Counted from the first letter of the stretch, positions 3,249-58,059 are shown. The stretch: 64,000 nt of DNA from a virus (IMGVR_UViG_3300042905_004154:1217-65216), one strand, 5' to 3'. The notes: generated from the letters alone by a model not told the origin. Numbers and translations: made by a program.

Positions 3249-4235
3249 CTACTTGGCGGCGAGGGTGGCGGAGAAGCGTGAGGGTCGGACACGGTGAACG
3301 CGCCGGCGTGGGTAGTGGGCGGCGACCTTGGCGGCGTAGTCGTCGCCTTGCGGGTCGTCGTCGGTGGCGAGGATGAGGTCGGCGGTGTCGGGCACGACGA
3401 TGTGGGCGAAGGCTTCGGTGCCGCCGGAGGTGAGTCCGAGCACGACGATCGACGGGTTCGCGGCCGCCCAGCAGCTCGCGGCGAGCCAGTCGGTCAGCCC
3501 TTCGCAGACGAGCACGAGCGAGGCCTCGGCGATGGGTCGCTGGTTCCAGAACACGAGGCCGCGGGCGTCGAGGTTCTTGCCCCAGAGCGTCTTGATGCGG
3601 CGGCCGCCGAACTCTGGCGGCTCCACGACGGCGCGGCCATGGAGGTTGACCGCTCGGGGTTCCGCGGCTTGGGGCTGGTCGACGGGGTTGCGGTCGCGGT
3701 CGACGGGGGCGAACAACCATCCACGGGTCACCAGCCGCCATGTGTCGGCGCGGCCTTGCGGCCACCAGTCCGGCCACAGGTCTGAGGCTCGAGGGGGAGT
3801 GAAGCGCGCAAGGTTGGGGGGCACGTTGAGCAGGCGGCGCTCGGTGAGGAACGGGTCACCGCTCGGGCACGGATGGCACGCGCTCCAGAACGACGCCACG
3901 TCGGCGTAGCGGGCGGGCGCAGGCGCGGGGACGGGGAGAGGCGGGGCTGCTTCGCCGCACCAGCCACGAACGCGCGCACGCTCGTCCTGCGAGGCATCGC
4001 GCAGGCGCTTGCCGGTGAGGGCGTAGGAGAGGTAGTCGAGCCCATCGCCGACGGCGCTGCAGCGGTAGCAGTGCCAGCCACCACCTGGTCCAACGACCAC
4101 TGCACCCCGGCGGTCGTCTCGCTTCTCCTCCCCGCAGGCGGGGCACGGGTAGCCGCGGCGGGCATCTCCACCACGCCCAAGGCCGACGGCGACTTCGTCC
4201 ACCGTGCGGCGCTGCCTGTCGATCCACCCTGTCAC
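3249..4235 (-). CDS. DNA primase-like protein (Zn finger + TOPRIM)
   Basis: CPACG...WHCYRC zinc finger; VCEGLTDWLA and ATDDDPQG TOPRIM motifs; adjacent to the D5 helicase. Confidence 0.8.
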   Translation of the reverse strand: MTGWIDRQRRTVDEVAVGLGRGGDARRGYPCPACGEEKRDDRRGAVVVGPGGGWHCYRCSAVGDGLDYLSYALTGKRLRDASQDERARVRGWCGEAAPPLPVPAPAPARYADVASFWSACHPCPSGDPFLTERRLLNVPPNLARFTPPRASDLWPDWWPQGRADTWRLVTRGWLFAPVDRDRNPVDQPQAAEPRAVNLHGRAVVEPPEFGGRRIKTLWGKNLDARGLVFWNQRPIAEASLVLVCEGLTDWLAASCWAAANPSIVVLGLTSGGTEAFAHIVVPDTADLILATDDDPQGDDYAAKVAAHYPRRRVHRVRPSRFSATLAAK

Positions 4236-29373: not shown

Positions 29374-32300
29374 CTACTCCGGCGCATCGCCGCTCGTGAT
29401 CAGGCGCTCGCCCTCGGCCCCGCGGGAGATGCCGTACTGCGGCAACTGCGCCTTCACCCACGCAGTCCGTTCGCCCACTTCCTTCAGCCCAGCCATGTTC
29501 TCCACGGTGGGCGTAGAGAACCCGAGGGACTGGAGAAGGATGCGAGCAACGTCCGGCGCGTAGGCCTCGCCCTTGCTGCCTTCGTAGGTCAGCGCCTGCC
29601 GGTTCAAGTCGGCGATGCCGGGGAACGACCCGATCAAGGCCGCCACCTCAGGGCGGAAGGTGTAGACGACGGTGCCGCTCTTGTCGTCAATCTTCACCCC
29701 CGGCGTGGCGTCTCGCCAGTCCCCGTCGGCGACACCCGATCGCACCATGAAGCCGGCGATGGCATCGCGCACAGCGTCCGCCGTCTTGGGAATCGACTGG
29801 GCCACCCGCTGCGGGGACCGGCCGGCGGGGTCCATCGACGCGATCAGCGACCCGAGGGTGGGCGACGACCGAGGGTCGAGCATCGGCGCGAGTGCCTCAC
29901 CCGGCGTGTTCATGCTCAGCCAGTCACCCGAAACCCCAAGAGTCTTCAGACCGATCGCACCGGCGGCGAGGGAGCCCGCCGTCACCATCGAGAACCACTC
30001 CATCGACCCGGCGAGGCCAGAGTGGGGGGCGACCGCGTGCCACGTCTCGGTGGGCACCACCTTCCCCTCGGTGGTGACCGGGTGCTTCATCCGAACCTGC
30101 GTCCGGTCGCGGAGGTAGGACCGCGCCATCTGCTCGCTGTACCACGGGGACAGGTAGGCGCGGATGATGTCCACGTCGTCCGGCTCGAGCCATGCCTCCT
30201 TGGGGATGGTGGGGTCTTTGGCCCACTCCATCGTCACCGGCACCGTAGGGTTGCTGCGAAGGAGGATCGCGTTCCAGTTCTCGGGCGTGAGGTCGGGGTT
30301 GACCGCCTCCGCCAAGGCGCGGAACCGCCTGAACCGGTCGTAGTGCTTGACCTCGTCCGCGAGCATGAAGGTGTTGAGAATGCCTACGTCGTCCCCTTCC
30401 GTGGTGGGCGCCTCGGCAGCCATCTCCTGCGCCTTCTCGCCGACCTGGTGCGTGACCCTCAGTCGGTACGCGCCCATCGGCGAGGCCACCGAGTTGATGA
30501 CCAGACGGTTCATCGACTTCTGCCACGACCAGAACGGGAGAAGCACCTGACGGAGCCAGTGCTGCTCCCCCTCGCTCAGGATGGCCCGGTAGTCGAACAG
30601 CGCCTCAACGGTTGCGCGCCCGGCCTGCGCCGGCTGCATTCCTTCCTCGATCAGGACCGTGTAGAGGGCGAGGCGCTTCCGGAGCGACACCGTCTCCGCG
30701 ATCGAACTCACGCCCTCGGCGGGAACCCGGAACAGCTTACTGAGTCCGTTCACGGACTGCACGAGCTCGGCCCGGTCGAAGCTGTCGTACACGCCCGTCT
30801 CGATGGCGGTGCGGCGCAGTTCGCTCGCCTTCCACACCCTGTCGCCGATGGTCACCAGTTCGTCGCCACCGTCCATGATGGTGCTGATCTCGACCCGCAT
30901 CGCGCCCATGCCGAGCATGTTGGACACCTTGCCGGCGAGCGTCTCCCCGACCGCACCACCGGCGTGGATCAACTTGGCGATGGCGCCCTTGTTCTTCCCG
31001 GCAGCGTAGGCGAGGAACACGCCGAGTCCGAAGTCCACACCGCCCTGCACGACCGACCGAACTACCGGCGCGACGGCATCACCGATCACCGCCCGCGCGA
31101 CGTGGCCGGCAACGCTCGGGATCGCGGACCGAAGGATCGCCACCACCGAGGAACCCTCGGCGCGAACGGCAGTCTTGAGCGCCTGCTTCATTCCGACCGC
31201 GATCATGATCTGCTCGGTGTCGCCGGGCATGTTGTTGAGCATGTAGCCGGGCTTGCTGGCGAGTACCCCGCGGGTGTTGGCGAGCTTCCACACGCTCAGC
31301 ATGTTGTTCCCGCCGTAGGTCTGCGGGGTGAACGTGCGCGCGATGGCGCCCGTCATGCGCTCGCGGACCATCCGCGGAACGTAGATTTGCTCGGTCATCA
31401 CGGCGTTGTAGAGCCCGATCCGCTCGGCGGCCCTCGCGTCCTGGCGAGCACCCGGAACGCCAACCTTGCCGCCAACCTGCACATCCTTGCCGCCGATGCT
31501 CTCGATCTTGGGAGCGTCCAGCGCCCCGGCGCCCACCATCCGGTTGGAGGCGACGGCTCGCTCCACCATGGTCGCGGGGCTGAGCGCCCGTATCGTCTCC
31601 TCATCGAACCGGCCCCCCGCGAGGGCACGGATCGCATCGGCGTCCTGCTTGGTGAACACGATGCCGTCGCCGAAGCCCTTGTTGAGCAGCACGACGTTCT
31701 CGGCCTGCGCGGCGATCCAGCCCGTGGTGATCCGAGTCCACGCCTCGGGCACTTCGCCGTCACGGGTGAACCGCTTGGCGGTCGTGTGCAGTCGCTCCAT
31801 GAACTCGGCCGCGTCGATCTTGCCGGCGCGGGCGGCCTCGAGCGTGGACTCAAACGCCTTCCAGAACGGTAACTTGGCGCCATCCTGCTCTGGGCGCCCG
31901 GCGATTCCGGCTCCCGTGAGGCTCTCGAGCGTGCTCTTCGCCTGCATGTCGGTCGAGAGAAGCGCGTCGAGGTACTGGTCCACGTCTGCCTTCTGCACGT
32001 TCACGAGGTTCGTGAACACGTCGAAGCGGTCCATGCCGGTGGTCAGGAGCCCCTTGCCGGCGCCCCCTGGCTTGCCCCGTAGGAAGTCCGCCGCCTCGTC
32101 CAGAGACTCCATCTTGCCTACGTCGCCCGCGATGGCGTCGAGCCGGCGCTCGGCGGCGAGGGTCCACTCCCGCGCCTCCTTCGACAGCCCCTCCTTCGCC
32201 CACGGCGCCATCTCGTTGCCGCCCATGAAGACCAACTTGACGGCTCGAACCGCGCCGTTCTTCAGGTCGCGTAGCAGGGTGGGGTTGGCCTTCACGCCCC

Positions 32301-35300
32301 GGAACCGGCTCGCGCTCTCGCCGAGGAGAATGCTCGGGGCCGCCGAGCGAAGCGGGCTGACGCGCCGAGTTGCCTCGGCCGCCTCGGTCGCGTAGGTCCG
32401 CATCAGGGCGTCCACGTCGCCCATCATCTGCGGCGTGATCTGGTCGACCGGTGCCGTCGCGAGCACCTTGTCGACCGCCGCCTCTGCGCGTGCGAGGGTG
32501 CCCTTGCCGACGAGGGTGCCCTCGAGCTGGAGAACGGCCGCGTCACGGAAGGCGGCGCGCTGAGCCGGCGTGACCGCAATCCCGCCGTTCATCACCTCGC
32601 GCACTGCCTTCTCCAGCCGCGGAGTGACGGCCTTGAGCGCCTTCGCCAACCGCTCCCCGGTGAACATCCGGCGGGCAGCGTCTGCGGCCGCTGCCGCGTC
32701 GACCAGGGCCTTCGTCGCCGGCGTCGGGGGCGTGGACCCCACCGCCTCCACGAGCGCCCGCACCGCGCCCTGTGACGCTGCCGGGGCGATGGCCTCCTGC
32801 GCGCCGAGGGCGAGCTCGCGTGCCGTGGTGGCCGCGCTGTCGAACAACCGCTCCGCGTAGGCTGCAGCCTCGGCCGGCGTGAGCTTGGCCGCGTTGGGAC
32901 CGGTCGACGTGGCGAGCGCGGCCACACGACGCAGTCCTTCCGCGAAGCCAAGGGCGGCGAACTGGCTGCTGGCACGTTCCGCCCGCGCCTTCTGCTCGGC
33001 CTTCTCCGCGCCCTCCAGCGTGCCCTTCATCGGGGTGGCGCTGTACTGGACGGAGCCGGGCGACTTGACACGGGCGGGCGGGGCGTAGAGGAAGTCGTCG
33101 CTCTTCTGGGCGACCTGTGCTGCATCATCCAACAGCGAGCCGAACACTGCCTTGCTCAACGCTGGCGGAACGCCGTTTCCGATGATGGTGGTCGCGAGCG
33201 CCGCATTCGTTGGCAGAGGGTAGTCGTCGGGAAGCCCAGTCAGACGCGCCAGCACCTGCGGCGTGACACGCTTCACCCGCCCGTCGGGCAGGATGATCCG
33301 ATGAAGTTCGCCGGGGGTGGCCTTGATGGTGGGCGCCGCACCACCCGCGAAGGCGTGTGGCACGGTCGTACTCCCAGCGCTTCCGCCCATCACAAGGAGC
33401 GGCTTCTCGACGCGATCGGGATCAATGCCGCGGGCCTTCAGACGCTCGCGCGCCCACGGGGGAACGGGCGTAGCGTCTGGTAGGTCGTCCACGAGGTCTG
33501 CCACGGTGCCGTACCAGTCGACATGCGGCTGCGCGCCGCGCGAACCGTGCGTAGGGACAGGGGGCGGCGGAAGCGTCCCGCCCTTGACGGCCCGCAACAG
33601 AAGCCGCTTTCGGCTGGTTGGGGCGCCGAAGTCGGCGGCGTCGTACACGAGCGCGTCGAAGGTGTAGCCCTCCTCTCGAAGCGCATCCTCCACGAGGCGC
33701 ATGGCCTCGGAGTTCTGGTAGCCCTTGACGTTCTCCAGCGTGAACACGCGAGGCTTCGTCTTTCGGATGGCGTCGGCAGTAGCCTGGGCGGTGAGGAGGT
33801 CGAGGGGCTGCTCGCCGTCTTCCGTTACGACCTTGGCGGCGCTGAAGTTCTTGCAGACCGGCGAGGCGTGCAGGTAGTCCACGTCGCCGGCTTCCCCGAT
33901 GTCGACGTTCCGAACGTCGTCAATGCGGACATGCCCGCCGTGAGCCGCCTTGTAGTGCGCGCCGATGTCCGCGTTCGCCTCGACCGCGAACACCGGATCG
34001 ACCTGTCCGCGCAGGCCGACCTCTACGAGCCCGCCGCCGCTGAACATGGTGGCGGTGCGGGGCTTGCCGCCAGCGCCGCGGAAGGGCGTGGGACCAGAGC
34101 CCTTCTGGCGCGCGTACAGGGCGTCCGCCGCCCTCCGCCCAACCACGCCCTCGATCTCCGGCACTACCCGCGGGTCCATGCCCGCCTCTGTCAGCGCCGC
34201 CTTGTAGGCCTCGACCTCCTTCTGGGCGCCCCCCACCTTCGGGTGCTCCACCAGCCACGCAAAGTCGGTGGTGGGCGACTTCGCCTGCACCGCCATGGCG
34301 GCGTCACGAACGCGCGTGGCCCATGGCGACGTGTCCGACGCACGGATGACCGTCGCCGACCCACCACCCTCGCGGATGATCGTCTGCGTGTTGGAGAGAA
34401 CGTGGCCGAGGGCGTCCGTGTCGCTGAACCCGAGAATCTTCGCCATGGTGGCGACGAACGAGTCCCACAGGGAGCGAGACGACTCGCCGCCCGTGCCGAG
34501 TACGATCTCACCGTCCTTGACCGTGACCTTGACCTCGCGCAGAAGCGCCTGGAACTCGGGCGACGACAGCGCCTCTGCCACGAACTCGTCGGTGTTCTTG
34601 AGCCCGTAGATGCGGCCCATGTCCTCGATGCCGGGGATGCGGCGCACGAGCTCGTGCAACTGCCCGAGGTTGCGAACGGCCCTCTGGACCGCAGGCGAGT
34701 ACAGGTGCGGGTTCGTGAGCGCGTTGTGCGTGATGACGTGGGCAGCCTCGTGAACCATCGTCTTCGCGGTGGCGTTCGTGGCGAGGTCGATCACCTCGAC
34801 GCCGGGGTCGTAGCGACCGACCGCTGAGCCGGGCAGGGCTACGTCCGTGCGAACGACGACCGCAGCGAGGTCATCGCCGCGAGTCTCGGCGAGGTGCTTG
34901 GCGACTGCCGCAACGGCCTCGTCGCCACTCTCCGCTGCTGCCGTCGCCACGTCCGCGAGCACGGTGTTGGCGCGGCCGGGCTTGGGCGCCCAGTCGGACC
35001 AAATCTCGAAGCCCTCCAAGGGGCCGCCTTCCCTGACCGCTGCTTCTGCCTCGGCGCGGGTGGCGAACGTCGTCTCGATGGCGTCCTCGGCCTCGCCAAT
35101 GGTCTTGCCGCGGTAGCCGACCTTGATGGGGAGGGCGCCTTCGGCTACCTCGAAGAGGTCGTCGCCGGGATCGAAAGGACGAACCTCACCAACTCCTTCG
35201 GCGACATCGACTCCCGCTGCTTCTCCATCTGGACCCAGTGGTCGTCCAGATGATCCAGCGCGTCCACGTCGCTCGGCCACAACTCGCCGCGCGGCTTCAT

Positions 35301-38300
35301 CGAATGCGATGTCGGCGGTTTCTCGGGCACCGAGTTCTCCATAGAGCCTCTTCTCGTAGTACCACAGAATGGCCTGGATGTCCGCAAGCGACGTGGGCAT
35401 CCCCTGCTTCTTCAGGATCGCCTGCGCTTCCATCGCGGCCTCGCGCATGAACTTCCGGTCTGCGCCGCCAGTCGGGGCGTCGGCCAGTTCGTCAAAGGCC
35501 GCCTTCCACACGGTGTTCGCGGCCACCTCCGCCTCGGTGCCCTCCTTGAACCCCTTGGCCTCGTAGGACTTGCGGAGCGGAACGGTGGCGGACAGGACCG
35601 CATCATCCGTCATCGCGGGGTCGCCAAGCAGTACCTTCATGCGGTCGAGCCCCTCACGGGTGGGGCGCTCCAGCAGGGTTCCGCGATACCGGTTGAACGT
35701 GCGCGACCACCACCGGTCCATGGTGAGGTAGCCCTCGGCCCCCATCAGGTTTGCGTAGAACGCTCCGAGCTTCGGCCCGAAGAGTGACGCTGCCGTCGGA
35801 ATACGCGCGCTCACCAGCTCGCCCGCAATCTCCTTCCTCTTGGTCGCCCGTGCCTGCTTGTTGTACTGACCGACGGTGATCTCATCGAGCAGCCGCTTGA
35901 AAGCAGGGGCGCCGCCCTCGTCGTGCAGTTCCTGAATCACGGCGAGCGACTTGTCGATGCTCGACTGCCGGACATGGCCGATGGGCGTGGAGAACTTGCC
36001 GGTCTTCCGGAAGTTGTCGTAGATGTCCGCCGCCATCTTCATGTTCGGCATGACCTTGTTGCCGTCAGAGGTGACGGCCACCAGCGCGGTGAAGATCATC
36101 CTCGCTTCTGGGTCCGACGCGAGCTCTGGGAACTCCTCCGCCATCGTGTCGATGGCACGCTGATACTTCTCCGAGTACCACCCAGCGCCCGACCGTCCGG
36201 CCTGCGCCTTCTCGAACGCGACCTCCTCCGCCATCCACTTCGCGATCTTGCGGCGCGCGGCAGGGCTCTGGTCCTTTGCGTCGATCAGTCCGTACTTCTT
36301 GCGTTGACGAGCCTCCAGTGCTGCGGCCACCTCGCGCGTCGTGTACTTCTTCTTGCGTGGGGGCAAGCCGAACTTGGCGAGCGTCTCCTCGCCCTTTCGG
36401 ACCGTCACCGTCTGGTACAGGTGCCGCGGGTCTTTCGGGTTCCACGTCCCCACGTTGCCGGTGGCGGACTTGACCTGGGTGGGCTCGAAGGCGACCCAGT
36501 GCTCGGTGTCGGGGTTGATGCCGGGCATGCGCTGCCCGAACTTCCGGCCCGCGCCGAACTCCTTGTCCGCACTGATGACGATGCCGTCGAAGCCCATCTC
36601 GCGGTAGACATCCTGCAGGAACTGGCCGGGGGAGGAGCGCTCACCGTCCGCGTACCAGTCCGAGCCAACGCGGCGCACGGCCTGCTCGAGGTCCGCCGCG
36701 GTGAAGCCGTCGGGGTCATCGAGTACGGAGAGCACCTCGTCGGCGAGGTTGTCGTCGTCGTAGTCGCGGGCCACGCGCTGGATGGCCTCCTTCGCCTGCA
36801 CGCCGAGCCCCTCCTCGCCGAGGAAGTCCTCCCCATCTTCCGACCACTTCGTCTCGATGTCGAAGCGCGTCACCTTGCCGGGGCGCAGGTCGACGGGCTT
36901 CTTGATGGCGGCGTACAGGGGCAGAACGGCGCCGCCGTGCTGGCCCGCAATCTGCTGCTCGGCCTTCCACCGGGTCACCTCGTCCAGCAGGCGCGGACCA
37001 GCCGACACCGACTCGGGGTCACCGACGGCGGCCCGGAGCACGTCCGCGTCCGCCTTTCGCTCAGGGTGAGCGGCCGCCCACTCGTCCACGAGCGAGCTGG
37101 CTTCGTCAGGGTCGTCCCAGACATCGACCATCTCTTCGTGGCGACTCTCGATACGGCTCTTGATGTCCGCGCCCTGACGGGTGGCGTAGTTGGCGCCCAC
37201 ATCCTCGGCGGAGGAGGTCAGGTAGATACCGCGGCCGTGGTGGTTCTCGACGTTGGCGAGGGTGGGGTTGAACGCATCGAACTCGTGCGTGGTGCCGTGG
37301 TAGAGGCGCTTCGGGGCGCCCTCCTCGTCCACGGCCTTGGTGCCCTCGATGAAGCGCTTGAAGGCGGGCGTGTCGGTCTGGTCGCCGGGGGTGCGCCGAA
37401 CCGGAGCCCCCCCTCCCTCCGCATACAGCACCCCACCGCTCGCTCGCTTCGCTGCTGCGGCCGGCTGGGCCGCCTCCACCGCCGCGCGCTCAGCCTGCGT
37501 CCGAACCCGAGCGGCGTCCGCAATGGCATCCTTGGCGCTCTGCGTGAGCGGTTTCGTCATCTGCTCGGCCTCGTCCGCCGCCTTCCTCAACGCCTCAACG
37601 ACCTCGTCCTCCGTGGCGCCCTTCGCGATCAGGTCGCCGAAGTACGCCGCCTTCTTGTCCGCGTCGACCGCCACCGTCGACACGTCCTTCTCCGCCCGCA
37701 GCAGTTTCTCTTCCTTCGACACTCCGATGGGGGCGCCCGCGGCCTTCGCCCCGTAGACCAGGAGCTCGAGCGGGCCAGGGGTGAGCAGGCTCGCGACGAA
37801 CGCACTGGCCCCCACATTGAAGTTGAGGGACTTGCCGCCCACATACTCGGCCGCGTCCGTCACCGCGTCGGGAGCGCCAACCGTCTCGCCCGCCGAACGA
37901 AGCAGACGACGCCCTGTCCCCTCGACATCGGCCTCGCTCTTCGCGCCGAAGTAGTCCCGGCGCGCCCGGATGGACTCAGGGGACATCGGAACGGTGATCC
38001 CGGCGATCTGACCGTAGTCGTAGGTGGGCAGCTCCTCCCCCGGCTTGTCGCCGAACAGACCACGGAGAAGGGCGGCTGGGAGCCCGGTCGAGACGATCGC
38101 ATACTCGGTCGACCCACCAATGGCGTCCAGTGCGTAGGACGGCAGCGACTGCACGCGGGCGACCGGCTCGCCCGCCTCGTTCACGCCGATCACTTCCGCC
38201 GTCGGCTTGAAGGCGTCGATCACGCTGGTGGGGTCGCGGTCCGCAGGCATCAGACCCTTGGGGCCCCACATTCCGACCGTCTTCAGGGTCGCCAAGTCCT

Positions 38301-39294
38301 CCATTGCGTCTTGCTTTACGGCCAACCGGTCAGGGTGGTCCTCGGGGAGGTCCGCGAGTTTCTGCCCCTTCGGCCGGAGCGCATCGACCTTCGACAGCCG
38401 GTAGCGGTAGTAGCGCTCGTACTGCGGGTCCGATGCGTTCACCAGCGCGATGCCGAGGTCTTCCAGCGGCGCGTCCTCGGCCACGCCCATCGCATTGCGA
38501 AGCCCCACGTCGTTGATCAGCCGCTCCGCCCGCGCGCGAACGTCGGACCGAAGGGCGGCCGTAGCCACCTTCGTTTCCGGCGACGGCATCAACTCTTTGG
38601 CAAACTTCTTCTGGACAGGCTCCACCTGGTCCTTGAAGAGGGTGCGCGCGAGCAGTGCCACCACAGGGTTCGTGTGGGGCAGGGGCAACCCACCCGTTCC
38701 GATCGCTTCGACGGCCTCGACCTCCTTCTTGGTCGGCTTGGGCAGGACCGCCCTCTCCATCTCGCGCTCAGGCGGCCCGTACACCGGCCCAGTCGGCGTG
38801 CCGACCTCGCCCAGCGTGCTGGACTTCGGCAGGCTGGCGGCGGCGTCCTGTAGTTCCCGCACCGTCCCGAACGTCGGCAGCGCATCCACGTAGGCCTGTG
38901 CGGCTTCCGGGGTGGCGCCTGTGTCGATCTGCTCGTAGTAGCCCCACGGCATCGCCGGGTCGCCTTCGTAGGGCGCGGTGACGGGCTTGGGCCCCGCCTT
39001 CTTGACCACCACGACCGGGTCTGCAACCTTGGGGGCGGACGGCGCGACACGCACGGGCGCAGGCGTTGCCACAACTGGTGCCGGGGCGGGCTTCGCGGCA
39101 ACGACCGGCTCCGGCTTCAGCCCGAGCAGTCGATCGCGCCGGCTCTGCCCCGAAGGCGCAGGCGCTGCCTCGGCAACGGGTTCCACCACCGGTTCGACCG
39201 TTGGCTCGACCACGGGCGTGGCCACGGGCTCATCGGACGCAGGAAGCCCAAGGAGCCTCTGACGACGTGCTTCCTTGCTGGCTGCGTCACTCAT
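29374..39294 (-). CDS. Giant (3306 aa) polyvalent putative ejection protein: ART-like, HhH-glycosylase-like, zincin and C5-MTase domains
   Basis: LYHGT...GRGIYLTS...FDGI...VAFEPTQVKSATGN; GWY...TSDG...GPKLGAFYANL..TMDRW...QAILW; HEAAH...EFVAE; FSGGG, SPVC, ENV, RKR, GNGVPP; last of the internal-virion-type genes. Confidence 0.85.
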   Translation of the reverse strand: MSDAASKEARRQRLLGLPASDEPVATPVVEPTVEPVVEPVAEAAPAPSGQSRRDRLLGLKPEPVVAAKPAPAPVVATPAPVRVAPSAPKVADPVVVVKKAGPKPVTAPYEGDPAMPWGYYEQIDTGATPEAAQAYVDALPTFGTVRELQDAAASLPKSSTLGEVGTPTGPVYGPPEREMERAVLPKPTKKEVEAVEAIGTGGLPLPHTNPVVALLARTLFKDQVEPVQKKFAKELMPSPETKVATAALRSDVRARAERLINDVGLRNAMGVAEDAPLEDLGIALVNASDPQYERYYRYRLSKVDALRPKGQKLADLPEDHPDRLAVKQDAMEDLATLKTVGMWGPKGLMPADRDPTSVIDAFKPTAEVIGVNEAGEPVARVQSLPSYALDAIGGSTEYAIVSTGLPAALLRGLFGDKPGEELPTYDYGQIAGITVPMSPESIRARRDYFGAKSEADVEGTGRRLLRSAGETVGAPDAVTDAAEYVGGKSLNFNVGASAFVASLLTPGPLELLVYGAKAAGAPIGVSKEEKLLRAEKDVSTVAVDADKKAAYFGDLIAKGATEDEVVEALRKAADEAEQMTKPLTQSAKDAIADAARVRTQAERAAVEAAQPAAAAKRASGGVLYAEGGGAPVRRTPGDQTDTPAFKRFIEGTKAVDEEGAPKRLYHGTTHEFDAFNPTLANVENHHGRGIYLTSSAEDVGANYATRQGADIKSRIESRHEEMVDVWDDPDEASSLVDEWAAAHPERKADADVLRAAVGDPESVSAGPRLLDEVTRWKAEQQIAGQHGGAVLPLYAAIKKPVDLRPGKVTRFDIETKWSEDGEDFLGEEGLGVQAKEAIQRVARDYDDDNLADEVLSVLDDPDGFTAADLEQAVRRVGSDWYADGERSSPGQFLQDVYREMGFDGIVISADKEFGAGRKFGQRMPGINPDTEHWVAFEPTQVKSATGNVGTWNPKDPRHLYQTVTVRKGEETLAKFGLPPRKKKYTTREVAAALEARQRKKYGLIDAKDQSPAARRKIAKWMAEEVAFEKAQAGRSGAGWYSEKYQRAIDTMAEEFPELASDPEARMIFTALVAVTSDGNKVMPNMKMAADIYDNFRKTGKFSTPIGHVRQSSIDKSLAVIQELHDEGGAPAFKRLLDEITVGQYNKQARATKRKEIAGELVSARIPTAASLFGPKLGAFYANLMGAEGYLTMDRWWSRTFNRYRGTLLERPTREGLDRMKVLLGDPAMTDDAVLSATVPLRKSYEAKGFKEGTEAEVAANTVWKAAFDELADAPTGGADRKFMREAAMEAQAILKKQGMPTSLADIQAILWYYEKRLYGELGARETADIAFDEAARRVVAERRGRAGSSGRPLGPDGEAAGVDVAEGVGEVRPFDPGDDLFEVAEGALPIKVGYRGKTIGEAEDAIETTFATRAEAEAAVREGGPLEGFEIWSDWAPKPGRANTVLADVATAAAESGDEAVAAVAKHLAETRGDDLAAVVVRTDVALPGSAVGRYDPGVEVIDLATNATAKTMVHEAAHVITHNALTNPHLYSPAVQRAVRNLGQLHELVRRIPGIEDMGRIYGLKNTDEFVAEALSSPEFQALLREVKVTVKDGEIVLGTGGESSRSLWDSFVATMAKILGFSDTDALGHVLSNTQTIIREGGGSATVIRASDTSPWATRVRDAAMAVQAKSPTTDFAWLVEHPKVGGAQKEVEAYKAALTEAGMDPRVVPEIEGVVGRRAADALYARQKGSGPTPFRGAGGKPRTATMFSGGGLVEVGLRGQVDPVFAVEANADIGAHYKAAHGGHVRIDDVRNVDIGEAGDVDYLHASPVCKNFSAAKVVTEDGEQPLDLLTAQATADAIRKTKPRVFTLENVKGYQNSEAMRLVEDALREEGYTFDALVYDAADFGAPTSRKRLLLRAVKGGTLPPPPVPTHGSRGAQPHVDWYGTVADLVDDLPDATPVPPWARERLKARGIDPDRVEKPLLVMGGSAGSTTVPHAFAGGAAPTIKATPGELHRIILPDGRVKRVTPQVLARLTGLPDDYPLPTNAALATTIIGNGVPPALSKAVFGSLLDDAAQVAQKSDDFLYAPPARVKSPGSVQYSATPMKGTLEGAEKAEQKARAERASSQFAALGFAEGLRRVAALATSTGPNAAKLTPAEAAAYAERLFDSAATTARELALGAQEAIAPAASQGAVRALVEAVGSTPPTPATKALVDAAAAADAARRMFTGERLAKALKAVTPRLEKAVREVMNGGIAVTPAQRAAFRDAAVLQLEGTLVGKGTLARAEAAVDKVLATAPVDQITPQMMGDVDALMRTYATEAAEATRRVSPLRSAAPSILLGESASRFRGVKANPTLLRDLKNGAVRAVKLVFMGGNEMAPWAKEGLSKEAREWTLAAERRLDAIAGDVGKMESLDEAADFLRGKPGGAGKGLLTTGMDRFDVFTNLVNVQKADVDQYLDALLSTDMQAKSTLESLTGAGIAGRPEQDGAKLPFWKAFESTLEAARAGKIDAAEFMERLHTTAKRFTRDGEVPEAWTRITTGWIAAQAENVVLLNKGFGDGIVFTKQDADAIRALAGGRFDEETIRALSPATMVERAVASNRMVGAGALDAPKIESIGGKDVQVGGKVGVPGARQDARAAERIGLYNAVMTEQIYVPRMVRERMTGAIARTFTPQTYGGNNMLSVWKLANTRGVLASKPGYMLNNMPGDTEQIMIAVGMKQALKTAVRAEGSSVVAILRSAIPSVAGHVARAVIGDAVAPVVRSVVQGGVDFGLGVFLAYAAGKNKGAIAKLIHAGGAVGETLAGKVSNMLGMGAMRVEISTIMDGGDELVTIGDRVWKASELRRTAIETGVYDSFDRAELVQSVNGLSKLFRVPAEGVSSIAETVSLRKRLALYTVLIEEGMQPAQAGRATVEALFDYRAILSEGEQHWLRQVLLPFWSWQKSMNRLVINSVASPMGAYRLRVTHQVGEKAQEMAAEAPTTEGDDVGILNTFMLADEVKHYDRFRRFRALAEAVNPDLTPENWNAILLRSNPTVPVTMEWAKDPTIPKEAWLEPDDVDIIRAYLSPWYSEQMARSYLRDRTQVRMKHPVTTEGKVVPTETWHAVAPHSGLAGSMEWFSMVTAGSLAAGAIGLKTLGVSGDWLSMNTPGEALAPMLDPRSSPTLGSLIASMDPAGRSPQRVAQSIPKTADAVRDAIAGFMVRSGVADGDWRDATPGVKIDDKSGTVVYTFRPEVAALIGSFPGIADLNRQALTYEGSKGEAYAPDVARILLQSLGFSTPTVENMAGLKEVGERTAWVKAQLPQYGISRGAEGERLITSGDAPE
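35145..35342 (-). CDS. Candidate nested (overprinted) 65-aa gene inside the giant ORF
   Basis: MENSVPEK...LWPSDVDALDHLDDHWVQMEKQRESMSPKELVRFVLSIP; AGAGG SD-like motif; host-frame GC3 collapses over this interval. Confidence 0.55.
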   Translation of the reverse strand: MENSVPEKPPTSHSMKPRGELWPSDVDALDHLDDHWVQMEKQRESMSPKELVRFVLSIPATTSSR

Positions 39295-42092: not shown

Positions 42093-42637
42093 TACTTCCC
42101 CTTCTGCTTGTTGAGGTAGTCCAACTCCGACCCCTTCGCGGACGGGGCCTTGATCGCACCCGTCGCCTCGCCTGCCGCTTCTTCGATCGGCTTGAACACG
42201 CTCGCCACATCGGCCTGCGTCTGCTCAGCCCGCTTCGTGACCCGGCCGAGCGCGTCCAACTTCAGTTGCCGCGCCGACTGTGCCGCCATGCTCTCCACCC
42301 CGGCCCGCGTGCTGCCGGCCGTCTTCTCTGCATCGCCGGCGATCTTCTGCCCGGAGAGGTCCGCGGTGCCGAACCCGCGAGCCGCGCTCTGGCGGGCCGA
42401 CTCTGCGCGCTGAGCCTGCGCCTGGTTGCGGGCGAGCTGGACCGCGTCCTGCGTCATCTGCTCCTTCTGCCCGCGGGTCGGCCCGAACTCGTTGCGCTTC
42501 AGAGCGTCGATGTCGGCGGTCGCTTGGCGGTCCTCGGCCTGGCCCTCGGCGGACAGCTTGCGCGCCACGATGCCGCCGAGCGCCCCAACGGTGCCGGCGC
42601 CTGCCTTGACTGCAGATGCGATGAGGAGAGGATTCAT
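42092..42637 (-). CDS. Putative small ejection (pilot-like) protein
   Basis: N-terminal Gly/Ala hydrophobic segment then Gln/Ala coiled coil. Confidence 0.55.
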   Translation of the reverse strand: MNPLLIASAVKAGAGTVGALGGIVARKLSAEGQAEDRQATADIDALKRNEFGPTRGQKEQMTQDAVQLARNQAQAQRAESARQSAARGFGTADLSGQKIAGDAEKTAGSTRAGVESMAAQSARQLKLDALGRVTKRAEQTQADVASVFKPIEEAAGEATGAIKAPSAKGSELDYLNKQKGK

Positions 42638-57706: not shown

Positions 57707-58059
57707 TCCGCGCCCGCCGCCCGCGCAAGAACCACAAGGTGAGCTCGCACCTCCGGCCGAACCACCGCGTCGTCCATGTGCCGTAGCAAAGGCTCCCTCG
57801 AGAACCGCTCCACGAAGTCGAGCACCAGCGCATCCTCCAACTGCTGCATCTCCGCAACCAGCGCCGACCGGTCCTCCGTGCCACGCACGAGGTTCCGCAG
57901 GTTCGGCACCACCACGTCCGATGGCAGCGCCGCATCCATCAGCCGCGCCACAATGCTCGGCGGCGGACCCGCGGCCGCACAGTCGCACGACACGTCGCCA
58001 AGCCTCATCGACCCGCACGAGGGGCAGAAGGTGGGCATCACTGCTTCGATGGGGGTCAT
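57703..58059 (-). CDS. Hypothetical protein upstream of TerL (possible TerS)
   Basis: Position and GTGA coupling only; CPSC. Confidence 0.35.
   Translation of the reverse strand: MTPIEAVMPTFCPSCGSMRLGDVSCDCAAAGPPPSIVARLMDAALPSDVVVPNLRNLVRGTEDRSALVAEMQQLEDALVLDFVERFSREPLLRHMDDAVVRPEVRAHLVVLARAAGAE

Follow-up and report, generated by a model that had tools for sequence, protein, structure and literature searches.

Does the linker that follows a DNA-glycosylase-like domain in a giant phage polyvalent protein encode a second, overprinted protein, and is that protein a partner of the domain it follows? The locus lies in the window, a 64,000-nt stretch of viral DNA from a genome of 68% GC. A preliminary description had placed here a 65-aa ORF in an alternative frame on the same strand as the giant gene, preceded by an AGAGG motif, and the sequence confirmed these elements. 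The nested ORF lies on the minus rather than the plus strand, in the +1 frame relative to the giant ORF, and the positions needed to follow the argument are these:

29374 to 39294, minus strand: host polyvalent-protein gene, 3306 aa, from the ORF list, translation and Pfam.
35145 to 35342, minus strand: nested +1-frame gene, 65 codons plus TAG, placed in its family by comparison of homologues.
35347 to 35351, minus strand: AGAGG Shine-Dalgarno-like (SD-like) motif read from the sequence, with a 4-nt spacer to the ATG (AGAGG-ctct-ATG).
35298 to 35300, minus strand: second in-frame ATG read from the sequence, giving a 51-aa product.
35167 to 35286, minus strand: host-frame linker rich in G, R, A, S and P, the dual-coding core, with reversed GC by codon position.

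The nested ORF begins with an ATG at 35342..35340 and ends with a TAG at 35147..35145, and its 65-aa product (MENSVPEKPP...SIPATTSSR) lacks both Cys and a signal peptide. The TAG falls in host codons E-V-A, directly past DDLFEV, which is the cassette junction at which the ORF had been said to stop. The AGG-CTN-TAT-G arrangement at the start also occurs in the homologous loci L001, L005, L014, L015, L032, L042, L061 and L066; the second ATG is one codon off the commonest start of the family, in which host Tyr20 is read as TAT-G. Independent contigs from three other runs, spanning all or part of 35098..35885, showed zero differences and zero indels, so an assembly frameshift is unlikely. No close variant of the window copy's own lineage was found for testing.

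The codon usage of the host gene is reversed over this ORF. The host frame was described as mostly G/C-ending elsewhere, with about 38 codons ending in A or T here; our recount gave 38 of the 67 overlapped codons, and sliding GC3 put the deepest dip of the gene at this position. Host GC1/2/3 was 0.88/0.55/0.43 in the overlap vs 0.69/0.49/0.86 in the whole gene, and in the 40-codon stretch at 35286..35167 it was 0.93/0.62/0.30, with the next lowest GC3 among 40-codon windows being 0.62. Read in the nested frame, the same stretch has a coding-like GC of 0.62/0.30/0.93, a pattern unique within the host gene. Across the 19 coding-like ORFs of the 64,000-nt stretch, GC3 was 0.30 or lower in 16 of 11827 40-codon windows, and the remaining dips fell within 5' stop-to-stop extensions that overlie a neighbouring gene. 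The open frame itself is a different matter: from the host protein and its codon usage, a stop-free +1 frame is expected here with P=0.64, so that in the window openness is uninformative and the case is carried by the codon-phase flip and the homologues. This expectation is what one would predict if there were no second gene at all and the ORF had arisen by chance in a high-GC genome, with the low GC3 reflecting a rare-codon cluster (a translational pause at the domain boundary) or the G/R-rich composition of the linker. The host gene also has much longer alternative-frame ORFs opposite it (434 and 976 aa), which fit this explanation as well.

The comparison covered viral and metagenome contigs with 117 unique homologous loci, in which the host domain is 38-61% identical and whose carriers are phages of freshwater and marine bacteria. 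Openness was scored over codons +31 to +62 past the WYYEKRLY motif, with expectations from synonymous resampling; because the loci share phylogeny, these tests against expected counts overstate independence. The +1 frame was stop-free in 103 of the 117 loci (67.4+-4.3 expected), as would follow if homologous cassettes kept the frame open, and in 100 it was both open and preceded by an in-frame ATG (33.6+-4.5 expected). Among the first 70 loci, the +1 frame was open in 58 vs 31.8 expected, while the +2 control frame was open in 2 vs 13.6 expected and contained 187 stops. Open +1 frames were also found in low-GC relatives with a GC3 of 0.36-0.6. An SD-like 4-mer was present 4-13 nt 5' of an ATG in 53 of 98 loci (12.1+-2.5 expected), and in loci with GC3 above 0.70 TAT encoded host Tyr7 in 26 of 55 cases and host Tyr20 in 29 of 52, vs 20% TAT locus-wide. 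In bacterial genomes and MAGs, an HMM of the peptide matched 6 of 11 motif-bearing loci, and only in the +1 frame.

These start signals bear on whether the +1 frame is entered by +1 ribosomal frameshifting or through indel variants, giving a truncated polyvalent protein whose tail folds onto the domain in cis. Three database proteins (P0127, P0178 and P0232) do run from the host frame into the +1 peptide, and a cis tail would account for the contact predicted below. The search that yielded these three fusions, however, was enriched for broken genes, and assembly indels may account for them. Both the ATG and the SD-like motifs are kept by host-synonymous codons, about ten loci have a +1 stop two codons 5' of the ATG that leaves scarcely any room for a shift site, and the usual -1 slip would lead into the stop-filled +2 frame. 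We regard frameshifting as improbable.

The GC3 dip follows the ORF among the relatives: it was present in 49 of 50 high-GC loci with the ORF (0.43 vs 0.80) and absent in all 5 high-GC loci without it (0.77 vs 0.85). The genome-typical GC3 is carried by the nested rather than the host frame in high-GC loci, and the host reading resembles typical alternative-frame low-complexity sequence. Both features would be expected of a relic, left when two genes fused through a formerly free-standing small gene that was out of frame, or when a frameshift was compensated, and no longer expressed. A dead frame, however, would gain stops and lose its ATG and SD-like motif, and all of these persist at 38-61% domain identity, low-GC loci included. 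Nor was a free-standing homologue found beside the terminal version of the domain or in five records that lack the ORF. A relic is, in our estimate, very improbable.

The preliminary description had seen selection on the second frame in the codon pattern of the window, and the substitution patterns among homologues bear this out. Within the domain, a 17-sequence clade varied most at host position 3. Within the overlap it varied most at host position 1, which is nested position 3, and least at host position 3, which is nested position 2. Over 50 independent pairs, the upstream domain differed at host positions 1/2/3 by.143/.087/.382 per site, the overlap by.252/.249/.224 (chi2 p=1e-85). Host-synonymous changes were suppressed where they would alter the nested product, as synonymous conservation had been expected to reveal: the host-synonymous/nested-nonsynonymous rate was.235 in the overlap vs.551 upstream. 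The dNN/dNS of the +1 frame was 0.76 (0.65-0.86) vs 0.92 for the +2 control, which is only modestly under the 0.87 of the same +1 frame in the non-overlapped domain.

Conservation of the peptide itself was clearest at depth. Over 630 deep pairs from 36 representatives, the mean alignment z was 2.06 in the +1 frame, 0.73 in the host frame and 0.43 in the +2 frame. The window copy aligned at z above 4 with 24 of 101 loci in the +1 frame, 8 in the host frame and 1 in the +2 frame, and its alignment with one relative (L144) reached z=7.4 in the +1 frame (0 of 2000 shuffles reached this value) and 0.8 in the host frame. When the window copy was left out of the HMM, the window ORF scored 10 bits with E=0.067, yet ranked first among 976 six-frame ORFs; the window copy is a divergent member of the family. 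Among near-neighbour pairs no frame was clearly better conserved (identity 0.540 host, 0.566 +1 and 0.538 +2; 28 pairs favoured +1 and 20 favoured host, Wilcoxon p=0.12), and this result favours a chance ORF. A pause or a compositional bias, on the other hand, predicts neither the deep conservation of the +1 peptide nor open frames at low GC3, and neither the kept ATG and SD-like motif nor the low variability of nested position 2, and we give the absence of a second gene very little credence.

Together, comparison across the family, in which about 100 homologous loci keep the open frame, ATG, SD-like motif and peptide family, shows frame, start, RBS and peptide all to be held by selection, as far as sequence can tell. 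A conserved overprinted gene is well supported on these grounds, and we consider it very probable that the nested gene is real.

We then asked what the nested product and the domain before it look like. The relevant positions are:

35172 to 35243, minus strand: helix-turn-helix hairpin of the nested product, residues 34-57, from AF2; conserved core and predicted contact surface.
35302 to 36285, minus strand: all-alpha domain with an HhH-GPD DNA-glycosylase-like fold, host residues ~1004-1331, from AF2 and VIA-align.
35764 to 35778, minus strand: invariant G-P-K-L-G hairpin, domain residues 233-237, from alignment A2 and the 117 loci; part of the predicted contact surface.
35716 to 35718, minus strand: invariant Asp, domain residue 253 in YLTMDRWW, found in 117 of 117 loci.

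The +1 peptide family had no Pfam or PHROG match, and none of 66 nested peptides matched a Pfam profile at E<=0.01; an identity as TnpV (PF14198) was rejected on this basis. An embedded o-spanin of the Rz1 type was also rejected, as the 65-aa product has no lipobox Cys. AF2 on the peptide alignment (A1) predicted helices at residues 34-45 and 48-57 with a pLDDT of 88-95. In 8 of the 117 loci the nested ORF is extended by a second conserved module (...DPIE.AM...P.LTRE.A.EMA..FGF), confined to the +1 frame, and in Limnohabitans phage DC33 the second module is present and the first absent.

The host protein comprises an ART-PolyVal domain, the HhH-GPD-like domain, the linker and further cassettes including a C5 DNA methylase. 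At E<=0.01, Pfam matched ART-PolyVal (residues 656-711) and DNA_methylase (1748-2054) and nothing else in the whole protein. The upstream domain thus had no Pfam match, and Foldseek gave none for it at E<=0.001. The name glycosylase-like given to this domain was supported at the level of fold: its AF2 model (pLDDT 90.4) aligned in VIA-align ranks 1-23 exclusively with HhH-GPD-type enzymes or their structural relatives at Z 6.7-10.4, values that helical models can reach by arrangement alone. These included Ogg 3n0u (Z 10.4, rmsd 4.1, 192 aligned), NTHL1 (9.7), MagIII (9.0) and EndoIII (8.9); after rank 23 the matches fell to Z 6.0 over 83 residues. By analogy with the EndoIII motif, D253 is a candidate catalytic residue and GPKLG a candidate HhH hairpin.

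Co-folding of the domain with the nested peptide gave a score of 0.70 (runs 0.70/0.68/0.72) vs 0.15 for the best of 3 controls. Of 80 solved complexes, 58 attain this mark, as do 2 of 110 mismatched pairs, counts that apply only roughly here because custom alignments were used. The runs had at least 52% of contacts in common and a partner pLDDT of at least 55. Hairpin residues 34-61 of the nested product were predicted to pack against domain residues 175-219 and 227-239. The predicted contact is the one that would be expected if the earlier suggestion of an effector domain paired with its own nested inhibitor or chaperone were right, and it supports, short of showing binding, a role for the nested product as binding partner of the domain. 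On this modelling we put binding at slightly below an even chance.

The comparison speaks against an obligate pairing. The 15 of 117 loci without the ORF retain all 27 checked invariant domain residues, including K235 and D253, and no HMM-detectable homologue was found downstream in 17 of 19 loci of a family whose protein ends with this domain, 33-54 aa past the motif, so that an intact domain is not always accompanied by its partner. Conservation is also lower at the predicted interface residues (0.53) than in the remainder of the domain (0.62), and all three observations count against an inhibitor or immunity role. It is possible, though we think it unlikely, that the nested gene is real and its product acts elsewhere, unrelated to the glycosylase-like domain, as a small regulator, a DNA-binding protein, a helper in packaging or processing of the polyvalent protein, or an anti-defence peptide; the linker would then be used because its disorder tolerates overprinting and gives co-expression. 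The ORF-less intact domains and the domain-terminal family agree with this, as does the second +1 module, which points to a small protein of modular build that has a function of its own. Against it, the co-fold exceeds its controls and uses exactly the conserved hairpin, and the nested gene always follows this domain, whereas the cassettes 3' of the linker vary among homologues.

We compared the locus with known systems. In phage lambda, Rz1 is wholly embedded in Rz in the +1 frame on the same strand with its own start, and the two products bind. Here too a small gene is embedded in the +1 frame on the same strand with its own start, and binding is predicted. Rz1, however, is secreted as a lipoprotein and carries a lipobox Cys, unlike the nested product, and the host here is a polyvalent protein overlapped on a disordered linker, not on a functional domain. 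In polymorphic toxins and colicins, a small partner gene directly follows an enzymatic effector module and is co-expressed with it. The present locus shares the placement, a presumed co-expression and a predicted binding, but its partner lies inside the same ORF in another frame and the pairing is non-obligate. Polyvalent proteins are themselves compared with such systems in Iyer et al. 2017 (PMC5512222).

Ugi and p56 are small phage inhibitors of uracil-DNA glycosylase (PMC3239192, PMC3794593), and like them the nested product would be a small phage protein that blocks the DNA-binding face of a DNA glycosylase. They are free-standing genes directed against host UDG, whose fold is a different one; here an HhH-GPD-like domain of the phage itself is the predicted target, and its inhibition would be a further step. 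An inhibitor or immunity role is plausible but doubtful.

A short regulatory peptide gene, comS, lies out of frame within the giant multidomain gene srfAB of Bacillus subtilis. We know of no proposed interaction of ComS with the product of its host gene. The present gene is likewise short and out of frame within a giant multidomain gene, but comS is known from a single lineage and the nested gene belongs to a deeply conserved family.

Taken as a whole, the probable explanation is a gene overprinted in the post-domain linker whose product is a predicted partner of the domain upstream. Such a coding gene would lie +1 on the low-complexity linker after the HhH-GPD-like domain of a phage polyvalent protein, with its own ATG and RBS made from host-synonymous choices (Tyr TAT, Arg AGG), and the late mRNA of the giant protein presumably serves for its translation too. 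Its product of 51-65 aa would consist of a disordered basic N-terminus and the conserved two-helix hairpin, and this two-helix hairpin may bind the preceding domain at a surface taking in the invariant GPKLG hairpin. As a co-expressed partner, it could mask or inhibit the domain in the producing cell, or instead help it to fold or assemble.

The preliminary description had proposed a small gene overprinted in the linker that follows the glycosylase-like domain of a giant phage gene. The window is part of a virus record of 65,216 bases. The alternative-frame ORF with its AGAGG motif was indeed found, in frame +1 relative to the giant ("host") frame, with the following features:

29374 to 39294, minus strand, giant host ORF of 3306 codons (from the ORF list)
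35342 (ATG) to 35145 (TAG), minus strand, nested ORF of 65 aa in frame +1
4 nt 5' of the nested ATG, minus strand, AGAGG, a Shine-Dalgarno (SD)-like motif read from the sequence
35300, minus strand, second in-frame ATG of the nested ORF

Because Pfam matched ART-PolyVal and C5 DNA methylase in the giant protein, we count it among the polyvalent proteins described by Iyer et al. (2017; PMC5512222). Contigs of three other runs showed 0 differences and 0 indels over the region, and the overlap was identical (0 differences) in all four runs.

Over the overlap, 38 of 67 host codons ended in A or T, in agreement with an earlier hand count of about 38. For positions 35286..35167, host GC at codon positions 1/2/3 was 0.93/0.62/0.30 compared with 0.69/0.49/0.86 for the whole gene, and a sliding GC3 analysis identified this as the deepest dip of the gene, the next lowest value being 0.62. 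Read in the nested frame, the same bases gave 0.62/0.30/0.93, the order of a coding frame in this genome. The nested product was abundant in D, E, K, Q, H, L and V, unlike GC-rich off-frame sequence, which the host reading of the overlap (RRGRAGSSGRPLGPDGEAAG...) resembled. The genome is 68% GC, a composition at which open alternative frames arise easily, and carries alternative-frame ORFs of 434 and 976 aa opposite the same giant gene. With the host protein and its codon usage taken as fixed, chance alone would leave the +1 frame free of stops over this stretch in 64% of cases, so the window alone proves nothing beyond an odd codon phase.

Other GC3 dips in the window, at 57734..57853, 3340..3459 and 42093..42212 (-), lay in long stop-to-stop ORFs. 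Dual coding was rejected for all three, as they were 5' extensions over the preceding gene at gene boundaries, and their +1 frame read like the end of that gene. At the end of the host-frame linker (window about 35152..35181, host residues about 1372-1381) we also observed a P.GEE.F-like motif that recurs in homologues and reads PGDDLFEV here. It coincides with the nested stop and with the end of homology between giant proteins, and could mark a junction or a site of processing.

Relatives of the giant protein number in the hundreds and are 1800-5800 aa long; apart from identical sequences, the closest are 57-61% identical over this part. The relatives share a common plan in which a domain ending in ...DIQAILWYYEKRLYGELGARQTADISYEEAA is followed by a low-complexity linker of ~35-45 aa and then by differing cassettes. 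We fetched 80 viral, 80 metagenome and 13 genome loci; of the first 160 plus the window, 157 carried the motif WYYEKRLY with enough flank and yielded 117 unique sequences. Over codons +31 to +62 after this motif the +1 frame was stop-free in 103 of 117 loci (67.4 ± 4.3 expected from synonymous resampling), which answered the question of whether homologous cassettes keep the frame open, and 100 of 117 also had an in-frame upstream ATG (33.6 ± 4.5 expected). The control +2 frame was open in 2 of the first 70 loci, against 13.6 expected. The nested ORF was kept in low-GC relatives as well (GC3 0.36-0.6).

Signals for initiation were similarly enriched. An SD-like 4-mer preceded an ATG in 53 of 98 loci (12.1 ± 2.5 expected), as in a clade with GGAAGGAAAGCAG-ATG or in the window's own group with AGG-CTN-TAT-G, and the Tyr codons that create the ATG were TAT in 26/55 and 29/52 high-GC cases, compared with 20% TAT overall. 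Since the loci are related, z-values overstate their independence; the excess of open frames, starts and SD motifs was large and present in separate clades.

The peptide could instead be a tail reached from the host frame by +1 frameshifting rather than the product of a separate gene. Three host-to-+1 fusion proteins in the databases would fit such a tail, yet the ATG and SD are maintained and stops lie just 5' of the ATG in about ten loci, and for these reasons we consider frameshifting unlikely. In the fusions (P0127, P0178 and P0232), the host frame runs straight into the nested peptide through an indel or frameshift near the domain end; they could result from misassembly, be pseudogenes or represent genuine trans-frame products. 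The stops stood two codons before the nested ATG in ten homologous loci (L002, L006, L007, L019, L021, L035-L037, L041 and L043). Several of these had a minimal start-stop in the +1 frame at codons +17 to +20 after the motif (ATG-stop-GYT-ATG), which could be relevant to re-initiation, and L019 and L043 had the stop alone. A compensated frameshift or out-of-frame insert limited to the window's lineage was also rejected: the host-frame linker was like the linkers of its homologues, the host-frame proteins from 120 homologues contained nothing that matched the nested peptide, and the +1 ORF was family-wide.

We then looked at substitution patterns. Within a 17-sequence clade, host position 3 was the most variable codon position in the domain and the least variable over codons +30 to +66, where host position 1 (nested position 3) became the most variable. 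Across 50 independent pairs, per-site differences at host positions 1/2/3 were.143/.087/.382 upstream versus.252/.249/.224 in the overlap, and changes that are synonymous in the host frame and alter the nested product fell to.235 per site in the overlap from.551 upstream. For the +1 frame, dNN/dNS was 0.76 (0.65-0.86), compared with 0.92 for the +2 control and 0.87 for the same statistic in the non-overlapped domain; host dNN/dSN was 0.93. Amino-acid identity between near pairs did not differ significantly by frame (p=0.12), and the near-pair selection signals were modest. The GC3 dip accompanied the nested ORF in 49 of 50 high-GC loci (0.43 vs 0.80) and was absent from the five high-GC loci without it (0.77 vs 0.85). 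No close variants of the window's own lineage were found for a substitution test, as its 90% cluster contained only identical sequences with differing start calls and its best non-identical relatives were ~60% identical.

The +1 translations formed a recognisable family with a basic N-terminus (MKKQ...) followed by the patterns [VIL]xDPxDP[LIVM][WH]xx[LI] and, after it, [ML][ST]Px[EQ]R...L..L. Among 36 representatives less than 70% identical in the host domain (630 pairs), the mean alignment z against shuffles was 2.06 for the +1 frame, 0.73 for the host frame and 0.43 for +2. The window copy was divergent (10 bits, E=0.067 with an HMM built without it) and was nevertheless the top match among the window's 976 ORFs. 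Aligned to 101 loci, it exceeded z of 4 in 24 cases in +1, 8 in the host frame and 1 in +2, and against the distant L144 it reached z 7.4 in +1 (0 of 2000 shuffles reached this) and 0.8 in the host frame. Together with the open frames, the ATG and SD-like motifs and the codon-position switch, this conserved family strongly supports the suggestion in the preliminary description of selection on the second frame. Neither a rare-codon pause nor a composition effect with no second gene accounts for the conserved peptide, the ORFs of low-GC relatives or the start signals, and these would not persist in a relic frame that is dead. For the family, an overprinted gene that is conserved and has its own initiation is well supported; for the window's own divergent copy the support is somewhat less direct.

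In a search of 1.84 billion proteins, the family profile matched 51 small predicted proteins at E≤0.001, most of which bear the N-terminal signature of the overlap; P0164, P0167, P0169, P0172 and P0173 have other N-termini. In a search for free-standing homologues, scanning viral contigs with P0147, P0164 and P0172 gave no match. Neither Pfam nor PHROG matched the nested product or its family; the only Pfam match below threshold, F_actin_bind for P0126, was dismissed (17 bits against a 23.6 cut-off), and the best ESM Atlas score was 0.82, below the usable range. On genome contigs, the peptide HMM matched 6 of 11 motif-bearing loci, solely in +1, one of them in the genome of a Polynucleobacter isolate. 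In that isolate (Polynucleobacter sp. UB-Piko-W3, L241), a possible experimental system, the domain and nested ORF lie within a 1.75-Mb chromosomal contig, presumably as a prophage. The family occurs in prophages of bacterial genomes and in phage contigs from freshwater and the sea, about a hundred in number. GenBank phages gave no match by DNA and three distant matches by protein (27-31% identity).

The 396 residues upstream were modelled as an all-alpha domain (pLDDT 90.4). Foldseek found no PDB match at E≤0.001. In VIA-align, each of the first 23 rows was an HhH-GPD glycosylase or a structural relative of one (Z 6.7-10.4 over about 165-217 aligned residues, falling thereafter to Z 6.0 over 83 residues), scores that helical models may gain from arrangement alone. 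A GPKLG sequence and a downstream Asp, which may correspond to the EndoIII motif, were invariant across loci. Modelled by itself, the peptide was disordered over its N-terminal half and formed a confidently predicted two-helix hairpin at residues 34-57. Co-folded with the domain it scored 0.70 (0.70/0.68/0.72), the best of three controls scoring 0.15, with at least 52% of contacts common to the runs and a partner pLDDT of at least 55. Of 80 solved complexes, 58 attained the co-fold mark, as did 2 of 110 mismatched pairs; these counts hold only roughly here because our own alignments were used. In the predicted interface, the peptide's conserved hairpin faces residues 175-219 and 227-239 of the domain, which include the GPKLG hairpin. 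This single co-fold supports a putative binding of the nested peptide to the upstream domain.

Of the nested inhibitor envisaged at first, the predicted contact is supported by the co-fold; the evidence speaks against an obligate immunity pairing. The ORF was missing in 15 of 117 loci (three with shortened forms) that kept all 27 invariant domain residues checked, and five such records had no copy elsewhere, their only matches being to the part overlapping the conserved host motif. In a family of ~920-aa relatives (L165-L183; P0215-P0229) the domain sits at the extreme C-terminus (...WYGEKYRMKEFGS...GLLQ*) without linker or nested gene; the protein ends 33-54 aa past the motif in 17 of 19 loci, and no nested-gene homologue was detected downstream (best E=0.07 in 19 loci). 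Conservation was also lower at the predicted interface residues (0.53) than in the remainder of the domain (0.62). The intact domains of ORF-less loci, the lack of a homologue in the ~920-aa family and the less conserved interface all oppose an obligate immunity role.

In some relatives a second conserved module, ending ...[YF][DN]PIE.AM...P.LTRE.A.EMA..FG[FY]*, extends the nested ORF to 100-170 aa. Its HMM matched 8 of 117 loci (L063, L073, L078, L137, L145, L155, L157 and L159), only in the +1 frame after the motif, and it was absent from the whole window (best E=0.81). The cultured Limnohabitans phage DC33 (L163, PQ492659) has only the second module in its +1 frame, and the giant CDS is the sole one annotated over the stretch. 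Its record is filed under Inoviridae, which looks like a mis-assignment (39-kb phage, CDS ~9.4 kb). That the nested gene is real and has a function unconnected with the domain is a serious alternative, and both the second module and DC33, which has that module alone, speak for it.

That the nested product partners or inhibits the glycosylase-like domain is a supported hypothesis. A more specific proposal, which we regard as doubtful, casts the nested protein as a factor dedicated to self-protection. Within the producing cell, its helical hairpin would lie over the DNA-binding hairpin of the HhH-GPD glycosylase-like effector that the phage itself encodes. Being a separate polypeptide, the nested protein would not accompany the giant protein through packaging and injection, so that the effector would reach the next host unmasked, and effector and inhibitor, sharing the same nucleotides, would be inherited as one unit.

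To our knowledge, few long overlapping genes on the same strand have solid comparative support in phages or bacteria, and such genes are discarded by gene callers. We found no description of this overprinted gene in the main text of the literature searched, and the available main text of the founding polyvalent-protein paper (PMC5512222) contains 0 occurrences of "overlapping" or "frameshift". A whole small-protein family is encoded within the linker of giant polyvalent proteins, and it offers a candidate, open to testing, for the regulator or inhibitor of a glycosylase-like phage effector that is itself uncharacterised. The "disordered linkers" of multi-effector proteins can be dual-coding, and linker sequences should therefore not pass as neutral spacers.
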